From positions 1 to 63,393 of the forward strand of contig CAIRHB010000013.1 of NCBI GenBank assembly GCA_903878285.1: DNA of 63,393 bases, read 5' to 3'. Below, piece after piece: positions 11,714 to 60,688 of the stretch (the first letter of the stretch is position 1; each line of letters starts with the position of its first letter). The notes under the pieces were generated by a model. The model searched no databases. It worked only from the letters and a program-made list of their open reading frames with translations, and had not been told where the DNA came from. The DNA comes from Candidatus Adlerbacteria bacterium (GTDB lineage: Bacteria; Patescibacteriota; Minisyncoccia; Phycocordibacterales; SBAW01). Made by a program: the position numbers and the translations under genes.

Positions 11714-13090
11714 ATGACGTTTTTTAATAGACCGCCAAAACCAGGTGTGGAAAAGAGAGCACCTACGAGAGTTGAGAAGACGGCAGCAGTGGAGACCGCA
11801 GAGACCGCACCTAATGTCATCACCCTGCCCCACGCAGATGCAGCGATAACACTATATAAAGAGTATCTTGCGGGACAATCTGCTAAAGCAGAGCGTGCAC
11901 AAGAAGACGCTGCCGAGTTGCAAGAAGTGTTCAACACCTATGTTGAGCAAGCGCTCGCACGGACAGAGGTGTATGAATCGAAAGAGCTTGGCGTCTCGTT
12001 TCCCTCCAGTTCGGTCAATATCGCCGAGTTAGCAAAGGCGCTGTATAAAAAGAAAACGGGAGAAGATTCAGAGATCAATGAGGCAAGGATGCCGAGAGAA
12101 ACACTAGCGCAAAAGAAATTTGTGTTTGGCTCGGCTCTGGGGCCAGCCGATGGCGACCCATTTATGTTTGCCGAGGAGACAATGCACGAAATCGTCACGC
12201 GATTGCCGCAGGCACTGAAGGATCTGCAAGAAGGGCGAGAACCCGAACCGTTTGAGGTATACACCGCGGGCATGCCAACCAACACACTCGGACATATCTC
12301 GCCTGAGTTTCTTGCACAGATACAGGCCGACCCTGTTGATGCTATGTCGGATATGTATGCAGAATTTATGCAGTCGAAACTACCCGAAACGAACACTACC
12401 CCCAGCGACGTGCAACAAATAGTCCAGATATACGGCATATCAATGGGAGCGGGATTTTCTGCACGAGCAGGCGAAAAGCTGCTGGAGCGCGGACAAGCAA
12501 CGCAAGATTTCAAACAGGCGCAGACGAAACACCTGCCCTATCTACAAATCAAGGCAATGGTGCCAGTAAGCTTGAGCGAATCGGATACAAAGAGACAAAT
12601 ATACCCTGGGTTTGTTGCTGATGGTGCGTACAACATGTTTACAAACCCCGCAGTCAAAAAGATTGGCGCAGGAATACCCGCCTTCCAAAAAGCAGCCAGC
12701 AGCGCATTAGCTAAAAAAAATATTCACGAGCAAATGGAGAATGGAGAAAAAGAGCGGAAAAGCGAAGCACTGAAAAAGATTATTTTCAACCTACATCACG
12801 AAATCTCGCTCAACCCAGATACCAAAATAACCACAGTGTCTGGACTCTATGACCTTACCTCCTACACATCAGAGTTTAACTTGCGGGCAATCGACCATCG
12901 AGAGTCCACAGATGGAAGTTCGCTGGGGCGAGCGCTTGTATCCAACACAACAGGCGAACACACAAACCGGAGGGATTTTAGTGCCGAGATGGGGCACACG
13001 ATCCCCTTCTTTCGCGAAAGCGAATTCAGACGAATGGAAGCAACAGCAAAGAGTATGCAAAATCTGAGAAATACAGAACGAGCGGCGTAG
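11714..13090 (+). CDS. Hypothetical protein with a GxSxG nucleophile-elbow motif (possible alpha/beta hydrolase)
   Basis: 458-aa ORF that is visibly AT-richer than its neighbours. GISMGAG is followed later by D (GLYDLT) and GH (EMGHTIPFF) in Ser-Asp-His order. No signal peptide. No family recognised. Confidence 0.6.
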   Translation: MTFFNRPPKPGVEKRAPTRVEKTAAVETAETAPNVITLPHADAAITLYKEYLAGQSAKAERAQEDAAELQEVFNTYVEQALARTEVYESKELGVSFPSSSVNIAELAKALYKKKTGEDSEINEARMPRETLAQKKFVFGSALGPADGDPFMFAEETMHEIVTRLPQALKDLQEGREPEPFEVYTAGMPTNTLGHISPEFLAQIQADPVDAMSDMYAEFMQSKLPETNTTPSDVQQIVQIYGISMGAGFSARAGEKLLERGQATQDFKQAQTKHLPYLQIKAMVPVSLSESDTKRQIYPGFVADGAYNMFTNPAVKKIGAGIPAFQKAASSALAKKNIHEQMENGEKERKSEALKKIIFNLHHEISLNPDTKITTVSGLYDLTSYTSEFNLRAIDHRESTDGSSLGRALVSNTTGEHTNRRDFSAEMGHTIPFFRESEFRRMEATAKSMQNLRNTERAA

Positions 13091-20508: not shown

Positions 20509-23500
20509 CTACTTAATAAAACTAAACGTCGTTGAGAAGTTCTTGAAGATGATGTCGACGATCGACTCACTCTGTTGCGGCGTCACAACGGTGCGCACCG
20601 GCAGTGTCTCGGTGTTCCCTGCCTGGTCGGTCGAGGACACCTGGATGCGGTAGATGGTGGACGGCTTGAGACTTGGCAGTAGCACCACGTGGTCCTGCAC
20701 AAAGCCGGTGTCATTCTCGACCTTGTTCTTGAGCGGTACGGTGGTGTTGCCACTTCCCTCCTCGTAGTACACCGCGCTAGTAGATGGCTTGTCGGTCTTC
20801 CACGAGACGATAGACTGTACAATATCGGTGCGACCCGGCACCAGGTTGGAGTCGATACGAAGGCTGGTGACCTGTGGGAGTGTCTTGTCGACCAGCGTAG
20901 TGACCGGCAGTGTACTGGTCATGGTGATGAGGTTACCATCTGCGTCGTAGCCATATGCTTTGACGTCGTAGGTATGCCCAGAGACAAGGTTGTTAGCAGT
21001 GAGATCGTGAGCGAGGGTCAGGGTGGCGTCCTTGAGTGTCTGGATGGTGCCTGTGGTGCGGTCGGTAAAGTCAATACTCGAGGAGGTCTGGATGCTCGTG
21101 GTCCACAGCACACGGAAGGAGTCTGGCTTCACATCAAGCACCTGTGGCGTGATTGGCCCTGCTTTGGTGGTGACAGTGTAGTCGCTACTCTTGGCGATCA
21201 CTTGAGGGAAGATGAATGCCTTGGTGATGAAGTGGTATTTGGTGTTTGGTGCCAGGTTGGTAAGGGTAAGCTGATGCGTTGTAGTGGCGATCTTGAGGTC
21301 AGAGGATTCTGCGGTGTAGTTGTGTGTCTTTTGGTAGGCAGCGTCTGTGTCGTAGTCGAGCACGGTGTAGGCAGGCACGTTGGTGCTCCAAGAGATCGTG
21401 GTGCTGTCCTGTGTGGTGCTGGCGATAATGGGCGTCGTCATGAATGGTGGGTTGATCGATGGGAGAGCCGACTGGATAATGTCCTCCAGCTTGCTCTGGA
21501 TATCGACCGCCTTGCTGAGTGCCGAGAGGTCGCCGAGGTCTTCGGCGGAGAACTTGGTGGTGAAGGAGGCGTCGGTGGATTGTGCAGTGAGACCGTCTTT
21601 GCTGATGACACTAACGAGATAATGGTAAGTGGTGCCTGGGAGCAGGTTGTTGATCTTGATACTGGTGTTAGCAGAAGGTGTCCAACTGCTTGCACTGTCG
21701 GTATAGGTTGCGGTGGGGGTACTGGAAGAAGTTGCACCATATTGGAGCCCCACTCGCACATCCTTGTCTGTCACCACATTAACCGTCGCATCAAAGGTGT
21801 CGATAGGATCCACCGTCATACTGCTGATCTTGGGTGCCACGGGCACTACCGGCGTCGGGTTGTTGGTGCTCCCTGCGCCGCCACTTGATGCCTGCACCAC
21901 AATCACCTCCGTGGCAGACGTCGTGACCATCTGCTCGTCGGATACACCACGGTTCCCGAGCGCATCATTGGCGATGATACGGAAGTAGTATGCCGTACTT
22001 GGTGTCAGGCCCGAGAGCGTCGCTACATGGAAGGTACCGAGCGTGGTATCCAGCACCGTGTTTGTGGTGTAGTTCCCGTCGGTAGTAGAGGCGACCGTGC
22101 CATACTCGACCTGTGTATCTGCGGGCTTGTCAGTGTTCCAGGTGACGACGATGTTCTTGGCATCAATGACAGGTTCGACAATGTCCGTGATAGTAGGCGG
22201 CGTGCTGTCTTTACCCGTGGTGAGCGTGTAGTTTGATCCGCCCGTGTTGTGGTCTGCGCTGGTGATACTATTTGCATCGGTCGAAGTAACGTAGAACGAG
22301 TATGGCGTAAGCGCCTGCAGATTGGTGAGTGTCACGCTGTGTGTAGTGGTGGCAGTCCCCGACCCAGCGGTTAGCGGATGCGACGGGTCAGCACTCACCC
22401 AGTAGAACACCTGCGAGTCTGCTGCGGTGTCAGTGTTCCAGGTGATCGTAGCACTGTGGTAGTCCTCGGTGTGCGCCACCGCGGTGATGACGGGGCCACT
22501 CACAGTGGTAAAGGTGTAGCCATTGTCCTCGCTGTTGGTGTTGCGACAAATGTCGGTGGAGGTGACCTTGTACTGGTAGGTGGTGTGTGCCTGAAGGTTG
22601 GTGAGATACACCGTGTGTGTGTTGAGGTAGCTGGTGGTCGAGGCGATGCCGCTAAAGCCACCCATACCGTAGGTCACCACCCCGTCTGCGAGATTGTTCG
22701 GCGTGCTCCAGGTAATCGTGGCAGACGTGTTGCCGAGATTACTCACAACAGGTGTCGTCATCACAGGCGGGAGTGACGAGCAGCCAGAGCCAGTGGGGGT
22801 CACTTTACTTGTGGGAGTAAAGTCAGAGAGGTTGCCAGCTTGGTCAACGGTACGTTCCTTGTAGTAGTAGCTGGTAGTGGAGGACAGGTTCATGTCCAGA
22901 TAGTAGTTGAGCGCCGCGGTGGTGACGGTTTGGAAGGGACTGTAGGTGGTGCCGTCGGTTGAACGCCAGATCTGGTACGCCTGGAAGGGGTCGCTACCGC
23001 CGTATAGTGACCACGCCAAGAAGAGTTGGTAGGTGTTCGTGGTGGCGTTTGATATATCGTGTGCCTCAAAGTTGTCGAGTGTTGCAGGCGCCAACACCGT
23101 GGTCGTGGCAATGTTGTTGAAGATATCCTTCGTGACCACCGTGACCGAGTGGGTTGAGGTACCGGTGTCGAGTGTCCAAGGTATACTAAGCGCGAAGGAT
23201 AACGGGAGCGCGTCGAGGATCAGAGACGGTGGTTCCTGGTTAACTCCACTGCTCCCGTTTACTCCGTCAGCAGTGCCGTTGCTGTTGTTGGAGACCGTAT
23301 AGTTGAGCAGCGGCACCGAGCTCGAGGCACTAATGCTCACGGTGGAAGTGCTGCTGGAGCCATCGATATGTACACTAACAGATGGTTGCTTCGTCTCGAT
23401 AGCGAACGCGGAGGTAGTGGCGTAGGCGATATTGTTGATGACCTCGTTGTCGTTGGCGGTGATGCGTACCTGCGCAGTAGTGCTATAGGTGTTGGGGATG

Positions 23501-26500
23501 TCTTGTGCTGCGTTCCAGTAAGCGGTGTAAGCGGTGTAGCCAATCTCCGTCACCGCCTTGTTACTCACTGCGTTGGTGGCGTTACCAGCGGCGTCGGCGA
23601 TGGTGGTGATGTTGTGCCAGGTGTCGGCGGGACTCAGGCGATATTGGAAGGAGGGGGTAATGAAGCCAGGCGTTACACTGCCGGAGGAGGTATCTTGGTC
23701 GCGCACGCGGTAGTCGATGCGTACTTTGCCATAGTTGGAGGAACTCTCAAGAGATGGCATACCGCTGTAGGGTATGTTGATCTGTCCCGCGGTAGCACCT
23801 GCCCCGTTACCAAGCGAGGGGTCGAAGTCTGGTGCTCCGTTTTGTGCATAGGTGACAACGATGCTGGTAATCGCGGGCACCGCGACTCCGTTGGAGGAGA
23901 TGAGGGTTGCTTGTACTTCCAGGTACTGATCGGTCGGCGGCGTGGTGTTGGTGGTGTCCCCTGTATTAGGCAGGATAGAAGCAGTACCTGAGCCGTTGGT
24001 GGCGAGGATGGTAGCAGACCATTGTGCGCTATAGAGACTGTCCTGCGTGTTAGCGCCACGCGTGCGGAAGAGTATCTGTGTGTTTGAGGGGATGGTGGTA
24101 GCCCAGCCCAGAGACACCATCTGTGCTGCTCCCTCGGCGTTGATCTTGAAGTTCTGCAGTGTGCCTATATAGTTGTGGTCGTTGTATGATAGGGTGAAGG
24201 ACGAGACGGTGGCGTCACCAGTGAAATCGACACGGTACTTGAGTGTGGTACCAGTCGTGGTGGCGAAGGTGGTTGGAGTGCCGGGGGTGGATGCGACCCA
24301 GGTGGCACCGTTGTCGTTGGAAAGATAGTAGGCTACGGAGCCGGCGGTGCCATTGGAGGCAACGACGTTCTGGATGGTAGCGGATTGAATACCGCCAGGG
24401 ACGGTTGCGAGGGTGGTGGAGAAGGCTGACTGAGAAACGGGAGGAGGGGTGGAGGAGGCGAGGGTGCCGTTGCCAGACCAGTACATGGTGCCATTTGCAG
24501 CAGCTATCACTGCCTCGTTAGAATTATTGTTCATGGTACTGAGGAAGCTTACTGCAGATGGCACGCTAGACCACTGCGCGTTTGTGCCACTGGGACCATA
24601 CTTCGCCACGAGTCCGTTATTGAAACCAACATAGATGGAGTGCGACACCGGGTCGTAGGTGTTTACGTTGGCGGCCCAACTGTTAGACGGAGTAGCATTA
24701 AACAGCGTTGTAAATTGTGTAGACAGAGAAGATACCGCGGTACCAACATTATTCGCGAGCATACCAATGTTCCAAAAAGCACTGGATTCAAATATTACGC
24801 CTGAGATAGGATCTACCAATGGAATTGAAGGTGCCCAGCATCCAGGAGAGACAGGGATGGTTGTTATAGTACCATCAAGACCTACCTTTATTGTCCCCGC
24901 AGCAGAAGTTCCTTGATATATCTTATTATCATATGCGCCATAAGTTAACGCAGTAGTGCCCCCAGAGCCGCAGCCTGTATCATTAGTAAAAGTATATGGA
25001 CTGCCAACCTGTGCTGTAGCGCCAGTTTGTAAATTGTATGAGTAGAATGTCTCGGTTACACTACTGCCCGACACTATTCCTTGCGAAAGATACAACAAAT
25101 GAGTAGCTGGATTTATCGCTCCAGTTACTGATGCCCAATAACTACTAGACAATAGAGGTATAGCGTTTGTACCAGACGACCCCATTACAGGCGTTACCGC
25201 ATCAGTTGCTGTGTTGTAGATAAAGGTTCCTCCACCTGAGTTAGAAACTACGAGACTATTAGTTGCTGCATCAAACGAGAGCACAACGCCAGCGTATCGT
25301 GGATCCTCCCACCAGACCATCTTTGAAGAGAGGTCAGTTTTTGCACCTGTGGTCAAATTAATCCTCCCAAGAAAGGCAGAGTTCGCAACAAACAGGTAGT
25401 TATGATTGGAGTCATATGCAAGTGCTGATGCTTGTCGATTAGGGTCAGCGAAGATATTCGTCACGAGTGAGCTAATGTCCTGAAACCTGTCAACATTCGT
25501 CCGCGCAAGTTTATTGACGGTGATTGGTGAATAGTATGGGCCGTATGATTTTAGTGCAGAAACTTCCCCAGCCGACAGCGCTCGGTTGTAGATAGCAACA
25601 CCAGCAATAGTAGCGTTTGAATAGTCGCCTTGGTAAGTTGGATTATAGCCAATAGATATGCTCGTGTTGGAAGGAATTGTGCCCACAAGCGCTTTAGTGT
25701 CTACTAATATTCCGTCAACATACATCTTTACATTGGAGCCATCATAGGTGTTGACCACATGATGCCAAATCGCTGTCGAGGTAGAGACGCTTGTACTCAC
25801 ATTGGTAGAACCATTGCCGATATTAAAACTAAAACCACTGCTATTTGCAAAGAACTGGAATCCCCTATTGTCTACGTCTGTATGCGAGTTTGCCATCAAT
25901 CGACCACCATTACCACCAAGCACCCACGCATCAAGCGTAAATGCAGTGTAACTCTGTGCAGTGTTTGCAAGGTCAATATGTTGATTACTTCCATTTAACT
26001 GTATTGCCTGCCCAAACCCCGTTGGTCCTGTCACACCATTGTATCCATTGACCACGGTTCCTGTATGACCATTGCTACTCAGATCTGGTAGCTGCACACC
26101 ACTAATGGTAGAGCTGTCGGAGTAGTAGGCAACGGGTGGATTCCCTGGGACTGCTGTTGAGTATCCTGTAACAAACGTCTGAGCCGTCGCCCAACTACTA
26201 CTAGTGTCCAGATGATAGTCAGTCCCGTTCGTGCCATTGAAGCTCTCGTTGAATGTACCCTTGAGCGAATCTGACCGCAGCGTAACAGTACCGGGCGTGG
26301 TAGTCATATCCACGTTTGGTGTGATGATGGTGGAGGTTGCAATACGGCCATCATTGTTGACACTACCAGTGGTGCCACTCCAGCCACTTTGGAATGCAGT
26401 CTGTGTTGCCCAAGGCGCCGTATAGGTTGCCGCTTGTGCAACGGGGAGAACGCCAACGAGTGGTGAGGAGATGAGCGAGGAGACAACCAAGAGTACGAGG

Positions 26501-26589
26501 AGGCGTTGCGTGAGCGTACGTAGCTGCACAAACACTCGTATGCAGACGGTTCGCACTTGTTGCTGTGTCAAAAAGTTTTGCATGTACAA
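20509..26589 (-). CDS. Giant secreted surface protein (2026 aa) with a LamG-like lectin domain and about eight FN3-like repeats
   Basis: It has a signal peptide (LLVLLVVSSLISSPLVGVLPVAQA) and a Laminin_G_3-like block (LNGSNQHIDL...FTLDAWV...VKMYVDG...AIYNRALS). Repeated FN3 / PAP-N-like modules each end in motifs such as LTNLQAHTTYQYKVTSTD. Confidence 0.85.
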   Translation of the reverse strand: MYMQNFLTQQQVRTVCIRVFVQLRTLTQRLLVLLVVSSLISSPLVGVLPVAQAATYTAPWATQTAFQSGWSGTTGSVNNDGRIATSTIITPNVDMTTTPGTVTLRSDSLKGTFNESFNGTNGTDYHLDTSSSWATAQTFVTGYSTAVPGNPPVAYYSDSSTISGVQLPDLSSNGHTGTVVNGYNGVTGPTGFGQAIQLNGSNQHIDLANTAQSYTAFTLDAWVLGGNGGRLMANSHTDVDNRGFQFFANSSGFSFNIGNGSTNVSTSVSTSTAIWHHVVNTYDGSNVKMYVDGILVDTKALVGTIPSNTSISIGYNPTYQGDYSNATIAGVAIYNRALSAGEVSALKSYGPYYSPITVNKLARTNVDRFQDISSLVTNIFADPNRQASALAYDSNHNYLFVANSAFLGRINLTTGAKTDLSSKMVWWEDPRYAGVVLSFDAATNSLVVSNSGGGTFIYNTATDAVTPVMGSSGTNAIPLLSSSYWASVTGAINPATHLLYLSQGIVSGSSVTETFYSYNLQTGATAQVGSPYTFTNDTGCGSGGTTALTYGAYDNKIYQGTSAAGTIKVGLDGTITTIPVSPGCWAPSIPLVDPISGVIFESSAFWNIGMLANNVGTAVSSLSTQFTTLFNATPSNSWAANVNTYDPVSHSIYVGFNNGLVAKYGPSGTNAQWSSVPSAVSFLSTMNNNSNEAVIAAANGTMYWSGNGTLASSTPPPVSQSAFSTTLATVPGGIQSATIQNVVASNGTAGSVAYYLSNDNGATWVASTPGTPTTFATTTGTTLKYRVDFTGDATVSSFTLSYNDHNYIGTLQNFKINAEGAAQMVSLGWATTIPSNTQILFRTRGANTQDSLYSAQWSATILATNGSGTASILPNTGDTTNTTPPTDQYLEVQATLISSNGVAVPAITSIVVTYAQNGAPDFDPSLGNGAGATAGQINIPYSGMPSLESSSNYGKVRIDYRVRDQDTSSGSVTPGFITPSFQYRLSPADTWHNITTIADAAGNATNAVSNKAVTEIGYTAYTAYWNAAQDIPNTYSTTAQVRITANDNEVINNIAYATTSAFAIETKQPSVSVHIDGSSSTSTVSISASSSVPLLNYTVSNNSNGTADGVNGSSGVNQEPPSLILDALPLSFALSIPWTLDTGTSTHSVTVVTKDIFNNIATTTVLAPATLDNFEAHDISNATTNTYQLFLAWSLYGGSDPFQAYQIWRSTDGTTYSPFQTVTTAALNYYLDMNLSSTTSYYYKERTVDQAGNLSDFTPTSKVTPTGSGCSSLPPVMTTPVVSNLGNTSATITWSTPNNLADGVVTYGMGGFSGIASTTSYLNTHTVYLTNLQAHTTYQYKVTSTDICRNTNSEDNGYTFTTVSGPVITAVAHTEDYHSATITWNTDTAADSQVFYWVSADPSHPLTAGSGTATTTHSVTLTNLQALTPYSFYVTSTDANSITSADHNTGGSNYTLTTGKDSTPPTITDIVEPVIDAKNIVVTWNTDKPADTQVEYGTVASTTDGNYTTNTVLDTTLGTFHVATLSGLTPSTAYYFRIIANDALGNRGVSDEQMVTTSATEVIVVQASSGGAGSTNNPTPVVPVAPKISSMTVDPIDTFDATVNVVTDKDVRVGLQYGATSSSTPTATYTDSASSWTPSANTSIKINNLLPGTTYHYLVSVISKDGLTAQSTDASFTTKFSAEDLGDLSALSKAVDIQSKLEDIIQSALPSINPPFMTTPIIASTTQDSTTISWSTNVPAYTVLDYDTDAAYQKTHNYTAESSDLKIATTTHQLTLTNLAPNTKYHFITKAFIFPQVIAKSSDYTVTTKAGPITPQVLDVKPDSFRVLWTTSIQTSSSIDFTDRTTGTIQTLKDATLTLAHDLTANNLVSGHTYDVKAYGYDADGNLITMTSTLPVTTLVDKTLPQVTSLRIDSNLVPGRTDIVQSIVSWKTDKPSTSAVYYEEGSGNTTVPLKNKVENDTGFVQDHVVLLPSLKPSTIYRIQVSSTDQAGNTETLPVRTVVTPQQSESIVDIIFKNFSTTFSFIK

Positions 26590-54239: not shown

Positions 54240-54521
54240 CTACATTGAGTAAAAACCACCAGTAAACTGCCTCCGCACATACCCTGGAACTTGAGACATC
54301 GAGACAAGGCGAAATTGCTTCTCTCCATTCCCCCTACGCCCCCAAAGACCTGTACCGTCTTGCCCGTACTCAAAACTGCCATCGCCTAAAACTACTTTAC
54401 CAACCACTGTCACAAACAATGGGGTTGTGTTACCAGACACGGGCTTATCCTCCGCCTTGCCAATATCTGGATTTTCACTCGGCTCTTCTGGAGATGGAGA
54501 AAGCGGCGTAACGTCCGTCAT
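54240..54521 (-). CDS. Small hypothetical protein (93 aa), last gene of the MTase/nuclease island
   Basis: GGAGG lies 5 nt upstream of the ATG. It is co-oriented with the two upstream island genes. No family recognised. Confidence 0.45.
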   Translation of the reverse strand: MTDVTPLSPSPEEPSENPDIGKAEDKPVSGNTTPLFVTVVGKVVLGDGSFEYGQDGTGLWGRRGNGEKQFRLVSMSQVPGYVRRQFTGGFYSM

Positions 54522-54602
54522 CCAGACCTCCTCTGCACATGTTCCACCACAATAGCGGATTTTTTGAGCATACTATTGTCCCGCTATTTTGCAACTCGTG
54601 CA

Positions 54603-55694
54603 CTACTTCCCCGATTTGGTGCGGTTGTCTTGCTTGCAGAGCATTTGGCAATTTTCGGCAACGGTTTTGCCGCCCTCGTGCCACGGCGTAATATGGTCTG
54701 CCTCCATCTCCTCAAGCTCAAAGTGCTTACCACATTTTACACAGATACCATCTTGCCGCTCGTATGCCTCGCGCTTTTCTTTATCTTTAAACATACGGAT
54801 ACTGAGCGACCGCTCACTGCCCGTCAATACGTACTCATAAATACCCTTCTTGTTTGTAATATCGTCATCGAGCATTAATTCTTTGATCTTGGCTTCGAGC
54901 TTGGCGGCATCCACCTTTTTGTCTTTGTAAGCATTATACAACTCGCCCCACGCGACATCCTTCATCTCCTTGCGATACGTCGTAAACGTCTTGCGCACCC
55001 ACGCGATCACATCCTGAAAATATTGCCACAACTCGTCGGCACCTTGGTCATGTTGATGCTTGCCCATGTATTCTTCGATATTGCCGTTATTGATCCACGA
55101 TAGCGCGGTCTCTAGATACTCTTGTCGAATGGGCGAACCGCTCACCAACTGACCACCATCGTGCGCGAGCAGATACGCGGCGCAGTTGGTCTTACTAAAT
55201 TTGAGCTTCGCGTCCGAGAGCCACGAACCAGTATACACCGCATTGCGCAACTCTTGGTCGGTTAACTTCTCGCCCGCAATGTTGATTATCTTAAACCAAT
55301 CTAACTTCTCACGGTCGGTGCCCTCGCAGAAATAAATCATTAACTCGTAGTCCAAAATCTGGTTTTGTTCCTCGTCGGTCAAGTTGTGAAAAAAGTAGCC
55401 GCCGAGCGAGTAGTCGCCGCCCACATACTGCCCGATACTGATTGTACGCTGTTGACCATCAAGCACCTCGTATACCCCCGAGCCTGTCTTGACCCAGTAC
55501 ATCACGTTGAGCGGGAAGCTCTTTTTGATTGTTTCAATCACCGCATCACGCTGCTTGCCGTTGTAGACAAACTCGCGTTGATATTTGGGGCGGATATCGA
55601 GTTTACCGCCATACGCCACCACACCCTCCTCGGCACTATCCTTGTAACCCGCAACCACCTCGCGCACTGCAATCTTGTGTAGATCAATTTTCAT
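54603..55694 (-). CDS. DUF262 (ParB-like NTPase, DGQQR motif) domain fused to a C-terminal HNH endonuclease
   Basis: VLDGQQRTISI is the DUF262 signature. The C-terminus CVKCGKHF...ADHITPWHEGGKTVAENCQMLCKQDN is HNH/His-Me finger. It starts 6 nt after the MTase stop. Confidence 0.8.
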   Translation of the reverse strand: MKIDLHKIAVREVVAGYKDSAEEGVVAYGGKLDIRPKYQREFVYNGKQRDAVIETIKKSFPLNVMYWVKTGSGVYEVLDGQQRTISIGQYVGGDYSLGGYFFHNLTDEEQNQILDYELMIYFCEGTDREKLDWFKIINIAGEKLTDQELRNAVYTGSWLSDAKLKFSKTNCAAYLLAHDGGQLVSGSPIRQEYLETALSWINNGNIEEYMGKHQHDQGADELWQYFQDVIAWVRKTFTTYRKEMKDVAWGELYNAYKDKKVDAAKLEAKIKELMLDDDITNKKGIYEYVLTGSERSLSIRMFKDKEKREAYERQDGICVKCGKHFELEEMEADHITPWHEGGKTVAENCQMLCKQDNRTKSGK

Positions 55695-55700
55695 AGTAGT

Positions 55701-56780
55701 TTATTTTTTTACTTTCTTGTTTCTTACAAATATTCGTTTAAATGTCTCTTTACCATTCAGATGCGAACCTCTACCATACACTCCATTCGGATCTTGATCT
55801 ACGCCTCGATTTGATCCAATAATCTCAAATTGCTCTGGATTATATTTATCAAGAAAAGTAATTGGCACCCCCATGACACCGGCAAAATCCATGGGGATTT
55901 CATACACCTTTGAGACCTCAATCGCATCATAATTATCATACGTTGGATACTCCTCTGGTGTATATTTTTTATACAAGGTCATTTCTTCGTGGCGTTTTAT
56001 AGTATCCAGATTTGTAAACCATACAACACTACCCATACTGAAATACTTGATACCATTTTCAATTTTTATTCGTGATTCCGTTGGAATATCATAATCCATG
56101 GGCACTTGAAACCACTTTGTACCACCATTATCATAACCGAGCCACAATTTATTTTCTTTAATAAATTTAAATACCTCTTTGTAGATAATCGCGTTTTGAT
56201 TTCCAAGAATCAAAAACTTTTTATCGTATTCCATCAGCTGCGCGACAAACTCGCGAAAGAGCGAAAATGGCGGATTAGTAACAATAATGTCCGCCTGTTG
56301 TAACAACTCAATACACTCCGCACTGCGGAAATCGCCCGCACTATACGTAACATCATCTGGCAAGTGTCGCGCGACATTTTTGTCACGCCTCAACAAAAGC
56401 TCAACATCCTCCAAACTTATGGCTCCGTCTGCATTTAGATCTGGTACGTCATTTATTTCGACAACATAGGGCTCTTTGTGCTCTGGTTTTAATCCCTCAA
56501 TAGCAAATAGTGGGAGCTGTTTCCCGACAATAGGGCTTTTGATATAGCTTGTTGCTATAAGTTTTTTTAAACCAAACGCTTTAAAGTTTGCGGCAAAATA
56601 TTTGAAGAAATTGCTCTCAAACGGATCGTCGCAATTACAATACACCACCTTGCCACGAAACTGGTCCTTGTAGTGCCTCAATTCCTTTTCAATATCAATG
56701 AGCTGAGTATAAAACTCATCCTTTTTTGCTTGACTCGCCTTATGTAGGTTTTGATTGAGTGATACGCTCGCCATACCCAT
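55701..56780 (-). CDS. EcoRI-methylase-family N6-adenine DNA methyltransferase
   Basis: The blocks DEFYTQ, VVYCNCDD, NFFKYF, TNPPFSLFREF (motif IV NPPF), YDNYDAI and GVMGVPITFL are as I recall them from M.EcoRI. The gene is strongly AT-rich. Confidence 0.8.
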   Translation of the reverse strand: MGMASVSLNQNLHKASQAKKDEFYTQLIDIEKELRHYKDQFRGKVVYCNCDDPFESNFFKYFAANFKAFGLKKLIATSYIKSPIVGKQLPLFAIEGLKPEHKEPYVVEINDVPDLNADGAISLEDVELLLRRDKNVARHLPDDVTYSAGDFRSAECIELLQQADIIVTNPPFSLFREFVAQLMEYDKKFLILGNQNAIIYKEVFKFIKENKLWLGYDNGGTKWFQVPMDYDIPTESRIKIENGIKYFSMGSVVWFTNLDTIKRHEEMTLYKKYTPEEYPTYDNYDAIEVSKVYEIPMDFAGVMGVPITFLDKYNPEQFEIIGSNRGVDQDPNGVYGRGSHLNGKETFKRIFVRNKKVKK

Positions 56781-56831
56781 ATACTACCCCCTCCGCAAGA
56801 TACCGCCACCCCACGCATGCACACCTGCTCC

Positions 56832-59144
56832 CTATTTTGCAACCGCGAGCGCGTCTTCGAACTTGATGGAAAGGAGTTTGGAGATCCCGTCGGAGCCCAT
56901 CGTGACGCCATAGAGGACGCCCGCGCGGGACATGGTTTCGCGGTTGTGGGTGATGACGATGAGCTGCGAGCGCTGCGCCAAGACCTCGATCATGTCGCCA
57001 TAGCGGCGCGAGTTCGCCTCGTCGAGCGCCGCATCTGTTTCATCAAGTATCAAAAACGGCGGAGGGTTGACCTGCGACATCGCGAAGATGAGCGCAATTG
57101 AGGTGAGCGCGCGCTCGCCGCCCGAGAGCATGTGCAGACCTTTAACACGTTTGTGTGGCAGCGAAATATCGACCTCGACGCCGTCGTTTTTATGCGCGTT
57201 TACTCGCGCGGTCGCGTCTTGCACAACACCGCCGCGGAGAGAATCATCCGCATCTGACGCACGGTATTTTGGCGAAAACTCGCTTGCACTTGTAGCATCA
57301 TCAGTGTCGTCGTCCGCATCATCACGCGCAGATTGGATAAGAGACAGTGTCGCACTCCCGCCGCCGAAGACGAGTTTAAAAAATCGGTCGAACTCGGCGG
57401 CGACGGTCGCGATCCCACTCGCGAAGCGCTCCTCCAACGTCGCCGTCAACTCCGCAATCAGTTGGTTGAGCGATGTGGCACTCTGTTCAAGATCAGCGAG
57501 CTCGCGGGCGAGAAACTGCTCGCGTTCGACGGTTTCTTTATGTTCGCGCAGCACCTCGGCAGCATTTGCTGCACCACTTTCCTCGACTTTAATTTTGAGT
57601 CGCTCCAGCTTGCGGCGGCGCTCGTCCTGGCGCTCCTGCGGCTCGTCGACAATGTCCGCATCCGACAGTGGCTCGCCGCTCTCGCTTCGCACTTCATAAC
57701 TGTCATAGTCGGCGATGGCACGGCCAACCAGCGCAGCTGCCTCGCCGAGCTCGAGCCGAAACTGCTCCTGCGCGCGCGACAGCGTCTCGGCACGTGCGCG
57801 CAGCTCGGCGATTACTGTCTCCAACTCGCTCCGGCGCGCCATCGCGGCAAAGAGCTCACGCTCACCTTCGCGGTTGGCATCTTTTTCGCTATCAATTTTT
57901 GCACGAAGCGCCACGACCGCATCACTCACTTCTTTCGCCTTTTGCTCTACAGCAGCGAGTTCTGTCTCGAGTGAGTGCTTTTTTTGATTGAGCTCGTCGG
58001 CCGAGATGCGCGGCTGCTCGACCTTCACCATCCGACGCAAGAAATCTTTTGCGAGGACAATCAGCGCCTGCAAAGCGTGGCGCATCGTCGCCTCGTCGTG
58101 CGAAAGCGCCTGCGCCAACTCCGCCTCGACTGTCTGTGCGAACTCGCGCGCTTGGGTGGCAGGCACGCTGTCGACCATCGTGGTGACAATCCGCGCCTGC
58201 GCGGCGAGCTCGCCCTCGACCCGGCCCAGCTCGCGGCCGAGGCTGTCGCGCCGCGCGGCGAGCCGCCGACCCTCGTCCTCGAGGTGCACCAGCTCGGACG
58301 CGCCTGCGTCATGCTGTTTTTGCGCGAGTGCCGCGCGCAGCGCGGCAATGCGCGTGCCGAGTGTTGCATACTCTTCCTGTGGGATGCGTCGCTCCTCTGC
58401 CAAGAGCAGTTGCCCGACGCGAATGCGCACGCTCTCGCGTTTCAAATATTCTAGATACATCTCGGCGAGCGAGTCGCGCAACTTCTGCGACTCCTCAATT
58501 TTCTTGACCTGCGCACCGAGGTAGCGCAAGTGCGGTGCCAGCTCGCGGCGCAGGCCCTCGACCTCGCGCATATTCTCGGCGGTCTTCTCCAACTTCTTTA
58601 GCGCCTCAACTTTTTTATACAAAAATGCCGTAAGCCCGAGCGCGTCCTCGATCATCTCGCGCCGCTCCTTCGGCGAGCAGGTGAGCACACGGTCGGCCTC
58701 GCCCTGCGAGATAATATGGTGCCCCGATGCGCCGATGTTCGCCGATGCCAAGAGCTCAGTAATATCGCGCAGGCGCACCTGGCTGCCATTCAACACATAC
58801 TCGTTCCCACCATCGCGGTTGACCACGCGCTCGATAGTCACCTCGTCAAAATCGACATTAAGCAATCGCTTACCACCAACTGATGGATTATCAAATACCA
58901 ACTTTACGCTCGCTCGCCCCGCGCGCGGCACCGCCGCCGAGCCATTCCAGATCATATCCTCGCCACGCTTGCCGCGCATCGACTTCATCGACTGCTCGCC
59001 GAGCACAAAGCGAAACGACTCGGCGATGTTCGACTTCCCTGAGCCGTTCGGCCCCACAATCGACGTAATCGCCGTGGCAAACGCCAAGGGCGTCCGTTTT
59101 GCAAACGATTTAAATCCGCTCAACTCAATCGACTTCAGGCGCAT
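56832..59144 (-). CDS. smc: SMC-family chromosome partition ATPase, short form without a recognisable hinge
   Basis: The N-terminal head is FKSFAKRT...IVGPNGSGKSNIAESFRFVLGEQS. The C-terminal head is LSGGERALT...LILDETDAALD...IVITH. The total is only 770 aa, and the middle is continuous coiled-coil-type sequence. Confidence 0.85.
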   Translation of the reverse strand: MRLKSIELSGFKSFAKRTPLAFATAITSIVGPNGSGKSNIAESFRFVLGEQSMKSMRGKRGEDMIWNGSAAVPRAGRASVKLVFDNPSVGGKRLLNVDFDEVTIERVVNRDGGNEYVLNGSQVRLRDITELLASANIGASGHHIISQGEADRVLTCSPKERREMIEDALGLTAFLYKKVEALKKLEKTAENMREVEGLRRELAPHLRYLGAQVKKIEESQKLRDSLAEMYLEYLKRESVRIRVGQLLLAEERRIPQEEYATLGTRIAALRAALAQKQHDAGASELVHLEDEGRRLAARRDSLGRELGRVEGELAAQARIVTTMVDSVPATQAREFAQTVEAELAQALSHDEATMRHALQALIVLAKDFLRRMVKVEQPRISADELNQKKHSLETELAAVEQKAKEVSDAVVALRAKIDSEKDANREGERELFAAMARRSELETVIAELRARAETLSRAQEQFRLELGEAAALVGRAIADYDSYEVRSESGEPLSDADIVDEPQERQDERRRKLERLKIKVEESGAANAAEVLREHKETVEREQFLARELADLEQSATSLNQLIAELTATLEERFASGIATVAAEFDRFFKLVFGGGSATLSLIQSARDDADDDTDDATSASEFSPKYRASDADDSLRGGVVQDATARVNAHKNDGVEVDISLPHKRVKGLHMLSGGERALTSIALIFAMSQVNPPPFLILDETDAALDEANSRRYGDMIEVLAQRSQLIVITHNRETMSRAGVLYGVTMGSDGISKLLSIKFEDALAVAK

Positions 59145-59188: not shown

Positions 59189-59620
59189 ATGGAGAAGACA
59201 GACTTCAATCAGCTAGATACAAAACTCGACGCAATAGTGAGCAGTATATTGGTGCTTACTGGTCGATTTGATACACTCGAGCACAGGTTTGATACCCTCG
59301 AACACAAGTTCGACGCATTGGAGCATAGGTTTGATACGTTCGAGAAGAATGTATCGGATCGGTTTGATGTGCTCGAACATAGATTTGATACGCTGGAGCA
59401 AAAGGTTACTGCATTAGGTGAGAAAGTAGATACTCTCGACAGCAACCTGTCTGACCTGACAGAGATCGTCGTCGCGATAAAAGACAAACTCGAAGACAAC
59501 GATGAGCGGCTTGAGATTGCCGAGGGCAACATCAACGGACTTCACCGCCGCATCGACGCCGAGGTCGATTCCCGCGTCGCACTTGAGGCATTCGTCAGCA
59601 AACACATCCCGGTGGCATAA
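59189..59620 (+). CDS. Heptad-repeat coiled-coil protein (RFDTLEH repeats)
   Basis: 143 aa that is almost entirely heptads, including six near-identical R/K-F-D-x-L/F-E-x units. TATACT-N7-ATG lies upstream. Confidence 0.65.
   Translation: MEKTDFNQLDTKLDAIVSSILVLTGRFDTLEHRFDTLEHKFDALEHRFDTFEKNVSDRFDVLEHRFDTLEQKVTALGEKVDTLDSNLSDLTEIVVAIKDKLEDNDERLEIAEGNINGLHRRIDAEVDSRVALEAFVSKHIPVA
59264..59401 (+). repeat. Six imperfect 21-bp tandem repeats (one 12-nt interruption), coding
   Basis: The units start at 59264, 59285, 59306, 59327, 59360 and 59381 (for example cgatttgatacactcgagcac and aggtttgataccctcgaacac). They are in frame with the CDS. Confidence 0.85.
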
Positions 59621-59633
59621 CACTGGCGCATAC

Positions 59634-60380
59634 TTACCGCAGCTTGTACAAAAATCCGTTTCGGCTCCAAAACCATAGTGGTGGATGCATTTCTATCGGC
59701 GAGATTCCAGAACCATCGAGCAAATTTCGCCAACGCTCAGAAATAGCTTCTTTTGAAAGCGTCTTCGCCTCGTTTTCAGTCAACACGCCGAGCTGCACCG
59801 AGCATTGCGTGATGTGCGTATCGGGCGCAATCTCTATATGTTCTTTGTTCCGTAAATCTACCTTCCCATATTCGCCCAAGATAAAAGACCAGTAGTTAAA
59901 GATCTTTGGTCCAGATACATACGGGAACCCTTTCTTGTGTCGCGCTTGGACAATATCTCGCAAGAGCAAAAAATCATTATTGGTCGCCTGCATCAATTTT
60001 GAAAAACTTCCCCATTCAGTATGCACGGTGTGCGCTATTCTCTTCCAAGTATCGATGTGTTTATTTGGCTGCAATGCAACTTTATGCTTGAGTAACTTTC
60101 TTCGCAACACATCGTCAGACATGCTCGAGACAATCTCCACAGCAAACACATCTTTTGTATCTGGGTCATTCCATGTTTGCAACGCCGACCTCCACAAGGC
60201 GTAACTATCCCGCTGATAATTAAGCGCCATAGGCAATGTAAAATACGCCAACCGCATTTCGGTTTGGTCATCCAAAAAAGCAGGGCTATTGTCCTCTGGC
60301 ATCGTCGTCTGCCCAAGCTGCCCCGTTTTGTACGCTTCCAGCAAACTCTTACAATCTGTAAGTAGTTGTTCTTTATTCAT
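59634..60380 (-). CDS. HhH-GPD-like protein (putative DNA glycosylase)
   Basis: The HhH-like segment FPYVSGPKIFNYWSFIL is followed by IAPDTHITQ, which resembles the GxGxK...xDTHx spacing of endonuclease III. This is a weak, motif-level call. Confidence 0.4.
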   Translation of the reverse strand: MNKEQLLTDCKSLLEAYKTGQLGQTTMPEDNSPAFLDDQTEMRLAYFTLPMALNYQRDSYALWRSALQTWNDPDTKDVFAVEIVSSMSDDVLRRKLLKHKVALQPNKHIDTWKRIAHTVHTEWGSFSKLMQATNNDFLLLRDIVQARHKKGFPYVSGPKIFNYWSFILGEYGKVDLRNKEHIEIAPDTHITQCSVQLGVLTENEAKTLSKEAISERWRNLLDGSGISPIEMHPPLWFWSRNGFLYKLR

Positions 60381-60688
60381 CGCTGCTTGAGTTCTACCTC
60401 CTCTTTATGTAAATCGAACTTGACCACAAACGCATCAAAGAAGCCTCTCTGCCCGACCAGTCCATACGGCATCGCGCGCCCAGCAACCTGCGGCATAAAC
60501 ACCTCGCGCGGCTTACCATCTGCCACCTTGATACCAACAGCTTCGCCAATCTCCGCATCAAACAGACACAGGTCGGCGCCCGAGTCCACCAGCACCTCAT
60601 ATCGGACTGATTCATCCTTCTTACCTCGCACCCGAATCTCAATCACCGGGCGCAAAACCTGTCCGTATTTCTTGTATCGAAACTTCAT
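60377..60688 (-). CDS. Retropepsin-like (clan AA) aspartic protease domain protein
   Basis: The LVDSGADLCLF active-site motif sits in a 103-aa protein. The gene overlaps both neighbours by 4 nt. Confidence 0.65.
   Translation of the reverse strand: MKFRYKKYGQVLRPVIEIRVRGKKDESVRYEVLVDSGADLCLFDAEIGEAVGIKVADGKPREVFMPQVAGRAMPYGLVGQRGFFDAFVVKFDLHKEEVELKQR

Follow-up and report, generated by a model that had tools for sequence, protein, structure and literature searches.

A probable restriction-modification cassette of an EcoRI-family methylase and a DUF262-HNH nuclease in a Candidatus Adlerbacteria genome

What is the role of an EcoRI-family adenine methylase whose neighbouring nuclease is unrelated to R.EcoRI? 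The question is raised by 63,393 nucleotides (nt) of Candidatus Adlerbacteria DNA (GenBank assembly GCA_903878285.1, contig CAIRHB010000013.1, positions 1 to 63,393; hereafter, the window), in which such a methylase gene is followed, between rnr and smc, by a gene for a nuclease with a ParB-like DUF262 domain and an HNH domain. The original prediction for this locus, made from the sequence alone, saw a non-canonical architecture and possibly a new kind of restriction-modification (R-M) system. Here, we report that the methylase and the nuclease are a real, conserved functional pair, and that, within the collections searched, EcoRI-family methylases are predominantly paired with the DUF262-HNH protein. 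The pair probably functions in methylation-protected restriction-modification. The nuclease family is already catalogued and, as far as we have seen, mechanistically uncharacterised.

The methylase and the nuclease

Three open reading frames (ORFs) were found on the minus strand, at 55701-56780, 54603-55694, and 54240-54521, with 6 nt between the methylase and nuclease ORFs; coordinates, strands, and gap were exactly as first reported. The features of the two larger ORFs are as follows.

55701..56780, minus strand: EcoRI-family N6-adenine DNA methyltransferase, 359 amino acids (aa) (Pfam PF13651, E=1e-136; PADLOC MTase_II PDLC03297, E=6e-124)
56265..56279, minus strand: catalytic motif IV, TNPPF, methylase residues 168-172 (from the sequence)
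54603..55694, minus strand: candidate restriction nuclease, 363 aa (Pfam GmrSD_N and HNH; PADLOC restriction endonuclease model REase_II PDLC03418, full length, E=2e-138)
55233..55595, minus strand: ParB/Srx-like DUF262/GmrSD_N domain, nuclease residues 34-154 (Pfam, E=1.3e-16), predicted to bind nucleoside triphosphate (NTP)
54795..55226, minus strand: all-helical middle domain, about residues 157-300 (AlphaFold2 secondary structure)
54612..54743, minus strand: HNH nuclease domain, residues 318-361 (Pfam PF01844, E=9e-13; PDB 4h9d, Gme HNH nickase, E=1.4e-4)

The methylase was aligned with the full length of the PF13651 EcoRI_methylase model (residues 11-355 against model positions 1-345). 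It contains DEFYTQ, VVYCNCDD, TNPPFSLFREF, and GVMGVPITFL, the four motifs quoted when it was first assigned to the EcoRI methylase family, and the assignment stands. Identity to the true M.EcoRI, taken from an Escherichia coli EcoRI plasmid, was 48% (BLASTP), end to end and including the C-terminal half; around residues 101-131 the window methylase has an insertion of 31 aa. A sequence search of the PDB returned no structure for it. NPPF was kept in 65 of 66 cassette methylases, as was DEFYT (65/66); with both motifs intact here, the enzyme is predicted to be catalytically competent.

The nuclease had been read as a compact DUF262 domain carrying DGQQR, fused to an HNH finger, and the Pfam matches to GmrSD_N and PF01844 bear this out. 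Its DUF262 domain holds the QR motif (Q39 R40), DGQQR (residues 79-83, nt 55446-55460), and the F/N motif (N104), as these motifs are defined in PMC12137116 and PMC12065111. The HNH residues are C318-x2-C321, D333-H334, N348, C353, and N357. Across 123 diverse family members (35-83% identity), Q39, R40, D79, G80, R83, C318, and N348 were invariant, and H334, C321, and C353 were at least 90% conserved. In papers on GrwAB, HEC-06, SspE, and NsnA, the QR, DGQQR, and HNH motifs are connected with nuclease activity and with the binding or hydrolysis of NTP. Among HNH models, the nuclease matched PF01844 and PF14279 only, with no Pfam match to DUF1524, and the HNH domain alone was matched in a PDB sequence search.

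An AlphaFold2 model of the nuclease, built from the 123 diverse sequences, reached a predicted local distance difference test (pLDDT) score of 94.6; an earlier run with 27 sequences of about 80% identity gave a pLDDT of 46 and was discarded. The model consists of an N-terminal alpha/beta domain, the all-helical middle, and a small C-terminal beta-beta-alpha module. Foldseek gave weak matches (E about 1e-3), all of them at the level of domains, the best in the PDB being ParB, Noc, and KorB bound to cytidine triphosphate (CTP) or cytidine diphosphate, then BrxU (7p9k) and SspE (6jiv), with further matches to the Gme HNH nickase, McrA, and Cas9 HNH domains. The long alignments were with ParB plus its DNA-binding domain, BrxU, and SspE. 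A ParBDB DNA-binding domain has been described for NsnA, GmrSD, and SspE (PMC12065111), and the helical middle domain, which is placed like ParBDB, is a putative DNA-reading module by this analogy.

No solved Type II restriction endonuclease was matched by sequence (PDB search) or by fold (Foldseek). PDLC03418, the dedicated PADLOC REase_II model, was matched by all 123 family members, and R.EcoRI matched PDLC03551 only, in agreement with the earlier statement that the nuclease is not an EcoRI-like PD-(D/E)XK enzyme. The nuclease, a DUF262-HNH protein not homologous to R.EcoRI, sets the locus apart from an EcoRI system proper. Because the two genes match MTase_II and REase_II models, standard defence annotation would label the locus a Type II R-M system.

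As a separate observation, two homologues of the nuclease, P0244 (464 aa) and P0245 (480 aa), carry a C-terminal extension of about 100 aa. The extension had no Pfam match and contains R-x5-H in the former (RNKWFAH) and R-x4-H in the latter (RNVWAH), resembling the HEPN signature.

Linkage and spread of the pair

The neighbourhood of the nuclease was surveyed in 80 fetched related loci from different species. The methylase stood directly upstream of the nuclease on the same strand in 78 of them, or in 78 of 79 informative loci, since a contig end truncates one (L045). Most loci had either a 1-nt spacer between the two genes or an overlap of 4 nt. On plasmids, a methylase was present in 43 of 43 records with a full-length nuclease, from hosts including Staphylococcaceae, Lactobacillaceae, Enterococcus, Actinomycetota, Proteobacteria, and Bacteroidota; the small carrier plasmids measured 7.5-11 kb. 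The genes were adjacent in the plasmid records inspected, and in RefSeq the pair is annotated side by side on plasmids of many phyla. The same overlapping pair was found in a Flavobacterium phage, and actinobacterial hosts, mycobacteria included, carry it complete. With the pair this regular and a PADLOC model covering the nuclease, the view of the architecture as non-canonical had to be given up.

The nuclease had at least 8000 relatives (about 78-83% identical among the matches listed, which came from many Patescibacteria lineages), falling into at least 503 clusters at 50% identity (E<=1e-30). More than 565 species genomes encode one, mostly Patescibacteria and also Omnitrophota, Endomicrobiaceae, Woeseiaceae, and others. 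Across Patescibacteria lineages and other phyla, nuclease identity was about 75-83%. An R.EcoRI partner was found on small enterobacterial plasmids only, in the order R then M. In a neighbour-joining tree, M.EcoRI formed a small branch nested inside the DUF262-partnered methylases, and the true M.EcoRI was 50-57% identical to Patescibacteria methylases.

The pair is not always uninterrupted. About 15 of the 80 loci held one or two co-oriented genes between methylase and nuclease, among them the following.

RhuM: L010, L054, L049, L045
AAA_15/AAA_21 ATPase: L076, 8527-9999
DUF2130: L028, 1793-3080
T5orf172: L044, L070, L072
Genes with no Pfam match: L037, L048, L059, L071, L078, L041

Genes of the RhuM, ATPase, T5orf172, and DUF2130 types are typical passengers in R-M operons. 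The inserted genes with no family match could be unrecognised defence genes hitch-hiking in the operon.

Two departures from the two-gene form were also found. A 688-aa cluster representative at 50% identity (P0257) has an EcoRI-methylase-like domain fused to a complete DUF262-HNH nuclease; its methylase motifs are degenerate (TNPPF has become TFPSF, and DEFYT is lost). This was the single fusion among the 150 best cluster representatives, and it hints at physical cooperation between methylase and nuclease. The temperate mycobacteriophages Hami1, Marchy, and Norz encode a full-length EcoRI-family methylase (PF13651, E=2e-138; in Hami1 at L098, 1425-2653) followed, at an overlapping stop and start, by a 50-aa nuclease stump that corresponds to nuclease residues 1-43 (67% identity). 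The mycobacteriophage cassette has apparently lost its nuclease, and what is left looks like a phage anti-restriction methylase.

Function, recognition site, and competing explanations

On the evidence above, the catalytic motifs are intact, the domain content is that of a methylase and an NTPase-like nuclease, the genes are linked and mobile, and both match Type II models; separate, adjacent methylase and endonuclease genes are kept as a pair, as in Type II systems. In the R-M function that we regard as probable, the methylase would mark host DNA with N6-methyladenine (m6A) at a short site, and the nuclease would nick or cleave DNA without this mark, methylation blocking its action. The mark is taken to be protective because of the near-obligate linkage, the phages that keep the methylase with a nuclease stump, and the actinobacterial hosts that have the full pair. 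A role in defence also agrees with the RhuM, ATPase, T5orf172, and DUF2130 genes that lie between the pair in some loci.

With less confidence, we propose by analogy with SspE, GmrSD, and BrxU that the DGQQR domain may gate the HNH site through binding or hydrolysing NTP. A requirement for NTP in cleavage is plausible from the invariant QR and DGQQR residues and, if true, would depart from the classical Type II definition, in which Mg2+ alone is needed. Our confidence is lower again for the recognition site: an AATT-core sequence, possibly GAATTC, would be a guess from the 48% identity to M.EcoRI.

In the window, GAATTC occurred exactly twice, at 13022 and 50900, the positions given originally, and the deficit then claimed depends on the null model. 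The expected number was 12.5 at Markov order 0, 16.5 at order 1, 5.2 at order 2, 3.2 at order 3, and 2.0 at order 4, and the depletion rank of GAATTC among the 64 palindromic hexamers went from 6th at order 0 to 45th at order 4. At order 0, CCTAGG, CTTAAG, AGGCCT, and others were depleted as much or more. In the pooled carrier DNA (1.02 Mb of host flanks of the cassette from 80 other genomes plus the window; maximal-order Markov expectation), the observed/expected ratio was 0.86 for 314 sites. The scarcity of GAATTC in the window is not a specific signal. Avoidance of 4- to 6-mers, assessed against maximal-order Markov expectations in the window and in the pooled carrier DNA, was also tried as a route to the recognition site and rejected, as it returned generic palindrome depletion only (GGCC, GATC, CTAG, and others) and no candidate.

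Like EcoRI, the cassette has a methylase that belongs to Pfam PF13651 and falls under one and the same MTase_II model of PADLOC, and both are two-gene, mobile, plasmid-borne modules. The cassette differs from EcoRI in its nuclease, which matches another PADLOC model (PDLC03418 rather than PDLC03551) and adds a ParB-like predicted NTP-binding domain, and in gene order, which is M then R here and R then M in EcoRI. HNH-type Type II enzymes such as KpnI, Hpy99I, and PacI likewise combine an HNH or beta-beta-alpha-metal cleavage module with a paired methylase; we know of no ParB-like nucleotide-binding domain in these three. SspABCD-SspE also joins a DNA-marking module to a restriction arm of DUF262 and a His-Me/HNH nuclease, and in SspE the DGQQR NTPase domain links DNA cleavage to the recognised mark. 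There, however, the mark is a phosphorothioate made by four enzymes, whereas here it is presumably m6A made by one, and SspE has DUF262 and DUF1524 (560-771 aa in the matched chains), in contrast to the PF01844 HNH domain and 363 aa of our nuclease. GmrSD and BrxU have in common with it an N-terminal DUF262 domain (QR, DGQQR, F/N), a helical middle, and a C-terminal beta-beta-alpha-metal nuclease, but they are stand-alone, modification-dependent, DUF1524-bearing, and longer (the BrxU chain has 580 aa), whereas our nuclease is methylase-linked and shorter. Of the features that define the GmrSD, BrxU, and SspE group, DUF262 with QR, DGQQR, and FxxxN is present and DUF1524 is not; that group has no cognate protective methyltransferase, and here linkage to one is near-obligate. 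The best PADLOC match outside R-M models was Menshen NsnA (residues 30-158, E=1.5e-24), found in all 123 family members. NsnA has no nuclease domain, its effector being NsnC (PMC12065111); at the window locus the nuclease is followed by convergent rnr, the partners NsnB (an ABC ATPase) and NsnC had no matches, and the ParB-DUF262 region alone matches NsnA.

Several points weigh against R-M function. The papers on PADLOC did not show whether PDLC03418 was derived from a characterised enzyme or from a prediction in REBASE. RefSeq names the nuclease "DUF262 domain-containing protein" only and R.EcoRI explicitly, and the nuclease has no NCBIfam model. Literature searches found no biochemical or methylome evidence and no paper describing the family. 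The Foldseek matches, as noted, were weak and confined to single domains. At one locus (L049), RhuM accompanies an intact nuclease, and the 4.5 kb upstream contain no methylase. No recognition-site avoidance was detectable in the 1.02 Mb of carrier DNA. Mean pairwise identity was 0.80 for the nuclease and 0.62 for the methylase, and the divergences of the two were weakly correlated (r=0.24); a slower nuclease and so weak a correlation are unusual for R-M partners that read sequence independently.

Names in use for homologues also vary and include "HNH endonuclease", "GmrSD restriction endonuclease domain-containing protein", and "McrA". Reviews and a systematic ParB-DUF262 census name GmrSD, SspE, PD-T4-2, Dazbog, and Menshen, and do not name the methylase-paired DUF262-HNH proteins.

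The main competing explanation is a nuclease guided by the methylase, in the logic of Type III or Type IIG enzymes: the methylase in a complex would supply the site, the nuclease would have little specificity of its own, and the ParB-like NTP switch would license cleavage. The greater conservation of the nuclease is in keeping with this, as are the M-before-R gene order, with the genes usually 1 nt apart or overlapping by 4 nt, and the fusion protein P0257, in which a degenerate methylase is joined to a complete nuclease as if the methylase fold were the DNA-recognition module. We nevertheless find such guidance unlikely. In about 15 of the 80 loci, one or two unrelated genes stand between the pair, the nuclease has a helical domain of its own at the ParB DNA-binding position, the r of 0.24 gives no sign of a tightly co-evolving interface, and the fusion is a single case among the 150 representatives. 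The original prediction had raised another alternative, a nuclease that senses foreign modification. Such an enzyme would attack modified DNA in the manner of the Type IV enzymes GmrSD and BrxU, with a separate role for the methylase, and three observations lean towards it: the N-terminal GmrSD_N/DUF262 family, whose characterised members are modification sensors, the public naming of homologues as GmrSD-domain proteins or McrA, and L049 with its nuclease and no nearby methylase. It is improbable all the same, because an m6A-dependent enzyme would gain nothing from its linkage to an intact adenine methylase (78/79 loci, 43/43 plasmid records) or would be turned by it against its own host, and the retention of the methylase by mycobacteriophages that dropped the nuclease suggests a protective mark; moreover, the HNH domain is PF01844 rather than DUF1524, and the protein is some 200-400 residues shorter than GmrSD, BrxU, and SspE.

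The wide scatter of the cassette invites yet another explanation, a selfish addiction or homing module in which the HNH nuclease aids spread or maintenance and the methylase prevents killing of the host. It occupies many unrelated chromosomal sites, small plasmids, and phages, it is flanked in 4 of 67 loci by direct repeats of 12 nt or more, and nuclease identity of about 75-83% across lineages and phyla implies frequent transfer. Selfishness, though, is compatible with R-M function, classical R-M systems being selfish too; the cassette in the window comes with no integrase, transposase, or conserved ends, and the other defence-type genes in the operon point to a role in defence islands. As an account that replaces R-M function, we think this very improbable, the most so of the three. 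The R-M role, one of the readings in the original prediction, remains the best reading of a conserved pair, without the novelty then suggested, since the system is already in PADLOC. A more specific form of it can be put forward tentatively: that the family is a distinct restriction class in which a ParB-type NTP switch, possibly using CTP or guanosine triphosphate, reads DNA methylation, alone or with the methylase, and gates the HNH nuclease. If true, the cassette would be an m6A counterpart of SspE and not a classical NTP-independent Type IIP enzyme.

Acquisition, neighbouring genes, and significance

The two-gene cassette was acquired horizontally. The original description of an AT-rich, horizontally acquired block between rnr and smc is sustained by low GC content, neighbours, and mobility. 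A Pfam search identified the flanking genes as rnr (RNase R, RNB domain), which is convergent and downstream of the nuclease, and smc. The GC content was 38.4% for the methylase and 49.5% for the nuclease, compared with 59-60% for rnr and smc, and the methylase gene was the lowest-GC 1-kb stretch of the window. Among related loci, the cassette was AT-rich regardless of host GC content, and in none of those compared, other than the window, was rnr or smc its neighbour. The GC content at third codon positions (GC3) was 0.38 in the methylase, 0.64 in the nuclease, and 0.71-0.73 in the host. This gap between methylase and nuclease was the largest among 62 loci, and across loci nuclease GC3 was never more than 0.1 below that of the methylase; from the asymmetry, the methylase might be a later replacement that arrived after the nuclease. 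In the window, the cassette has neither an integrase nor a transposase beside it, and no conserved element ends.

The edges of the insert and the leader are as follows.

56832..56843, minus strand: left copy of a direct repeat (gene-strand sequence GTTGCAAAATAG), formed by the final 12 nt of smc with the TAG stop codon; proposed upstream boundary of the insert
56781..56831, minus strand: leader of 51 nt from the smc stop to the methylase start, with a GGAGG Shine-Dalgarno-like motif
54584..54595, minus strand: right copy of the repeat, 8 nt past the nuclease stop codon; proposed downstream edge of the insert

A promoter scan found no sigma-70-like site in the leader, so read-through from smc is possible. 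The repeat is a perfect 12 nt and encloses a 2248-bp segment with the methylase and nuclease only; a repeat of at least 12 nt was seen in 0 of 200 matched null window pairs. It is suggestive of an insertion scar, and the insertion appears to have taken place at the smc stop codon, with a 12-nt duplication on both sides. Flanking direct repeats were rejected as a family-wide signature, since only 4 of 67 loci have them. A search of metagenome contigs for the empty site, with the junction predicted between smc and the spacer, gave no exact match, and the insert was present on every contig encoding an identical SMC or RNase R.

The 93-aa ORF at 54240-54521, which had been thought to complete the cassette, lies outside the segment bracketed by the repeat, in what looks like the native smc-rnr spacer. 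It had no family match in profile searches (Pfam, NCBIfam, PADLOC) and no homologue in the 80 related loci even at E<=10, and its sole match among 5.8 billion proteins was itself. Its DNA was 100% identical in same-strain contigs, which is uninformative on conservation. As an ORFan absent from related loci and outside the repeat, it is not a component of the cassette.

Other features of the window were recorded. Four metagenome contigs of the same strain (L090, L094, L095, L096), from assemblies of several samples, start or stop inside the methylase gene, with identical flanks; the cause could be heterogeneity of the strain or poor coverage of this AT-rich gene. The SMC homologue (56832-59144, minus strand) has 770 aa with an SMC_N match over residues 3-755. 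Typical bacterial SMC proteins have about 1,100-1,200 aa, so the coiled-coil arms of this one would be unusually short. Just beyond smc, positions 59189-60688 have a GC content of 0.45-0.49 and may be a second acquired segment, with the following content.

59189-59620, plus strand: 143-aa coiled-coil protein with LEHRFDT-type repeats
59634-60380, minus strand: 248-aa ORF, no Pfam match
60377-60688, minus strand: 103-aa ORF, weak match to retropepsin-like aspartyl protease

GC content drops below 45% at just one further place in the window (about 24.75-26.0 kb), within a single 2026-aa ORF (20509-26589, minus strand). No tRNA genes and no Rfam families at the gathering threshold were found in the window.

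The locus is one further copy of a very common, already catalogued mobile R-M cassette. The family is of interest as the dominant partner of EcoRI-family methylases across the collections searched and as a combination of a ParB-like switch with an HNH nuclease, for which literature searches found no published biochemistry. It is common in Patescibacteria, a group in which CRISPR (clustered regularly interspaced short palindromic repeats) is reported to be largely absent. Should the family prove to be a distinct restriction class, an NTPase-nuclease would be the usual partner of the EcoRI methylase family and R.EcoRI the exception, and the idea of DUF262 as a modification sensor may extend from phosphorothioate and hypermodified cytosine to m6A.

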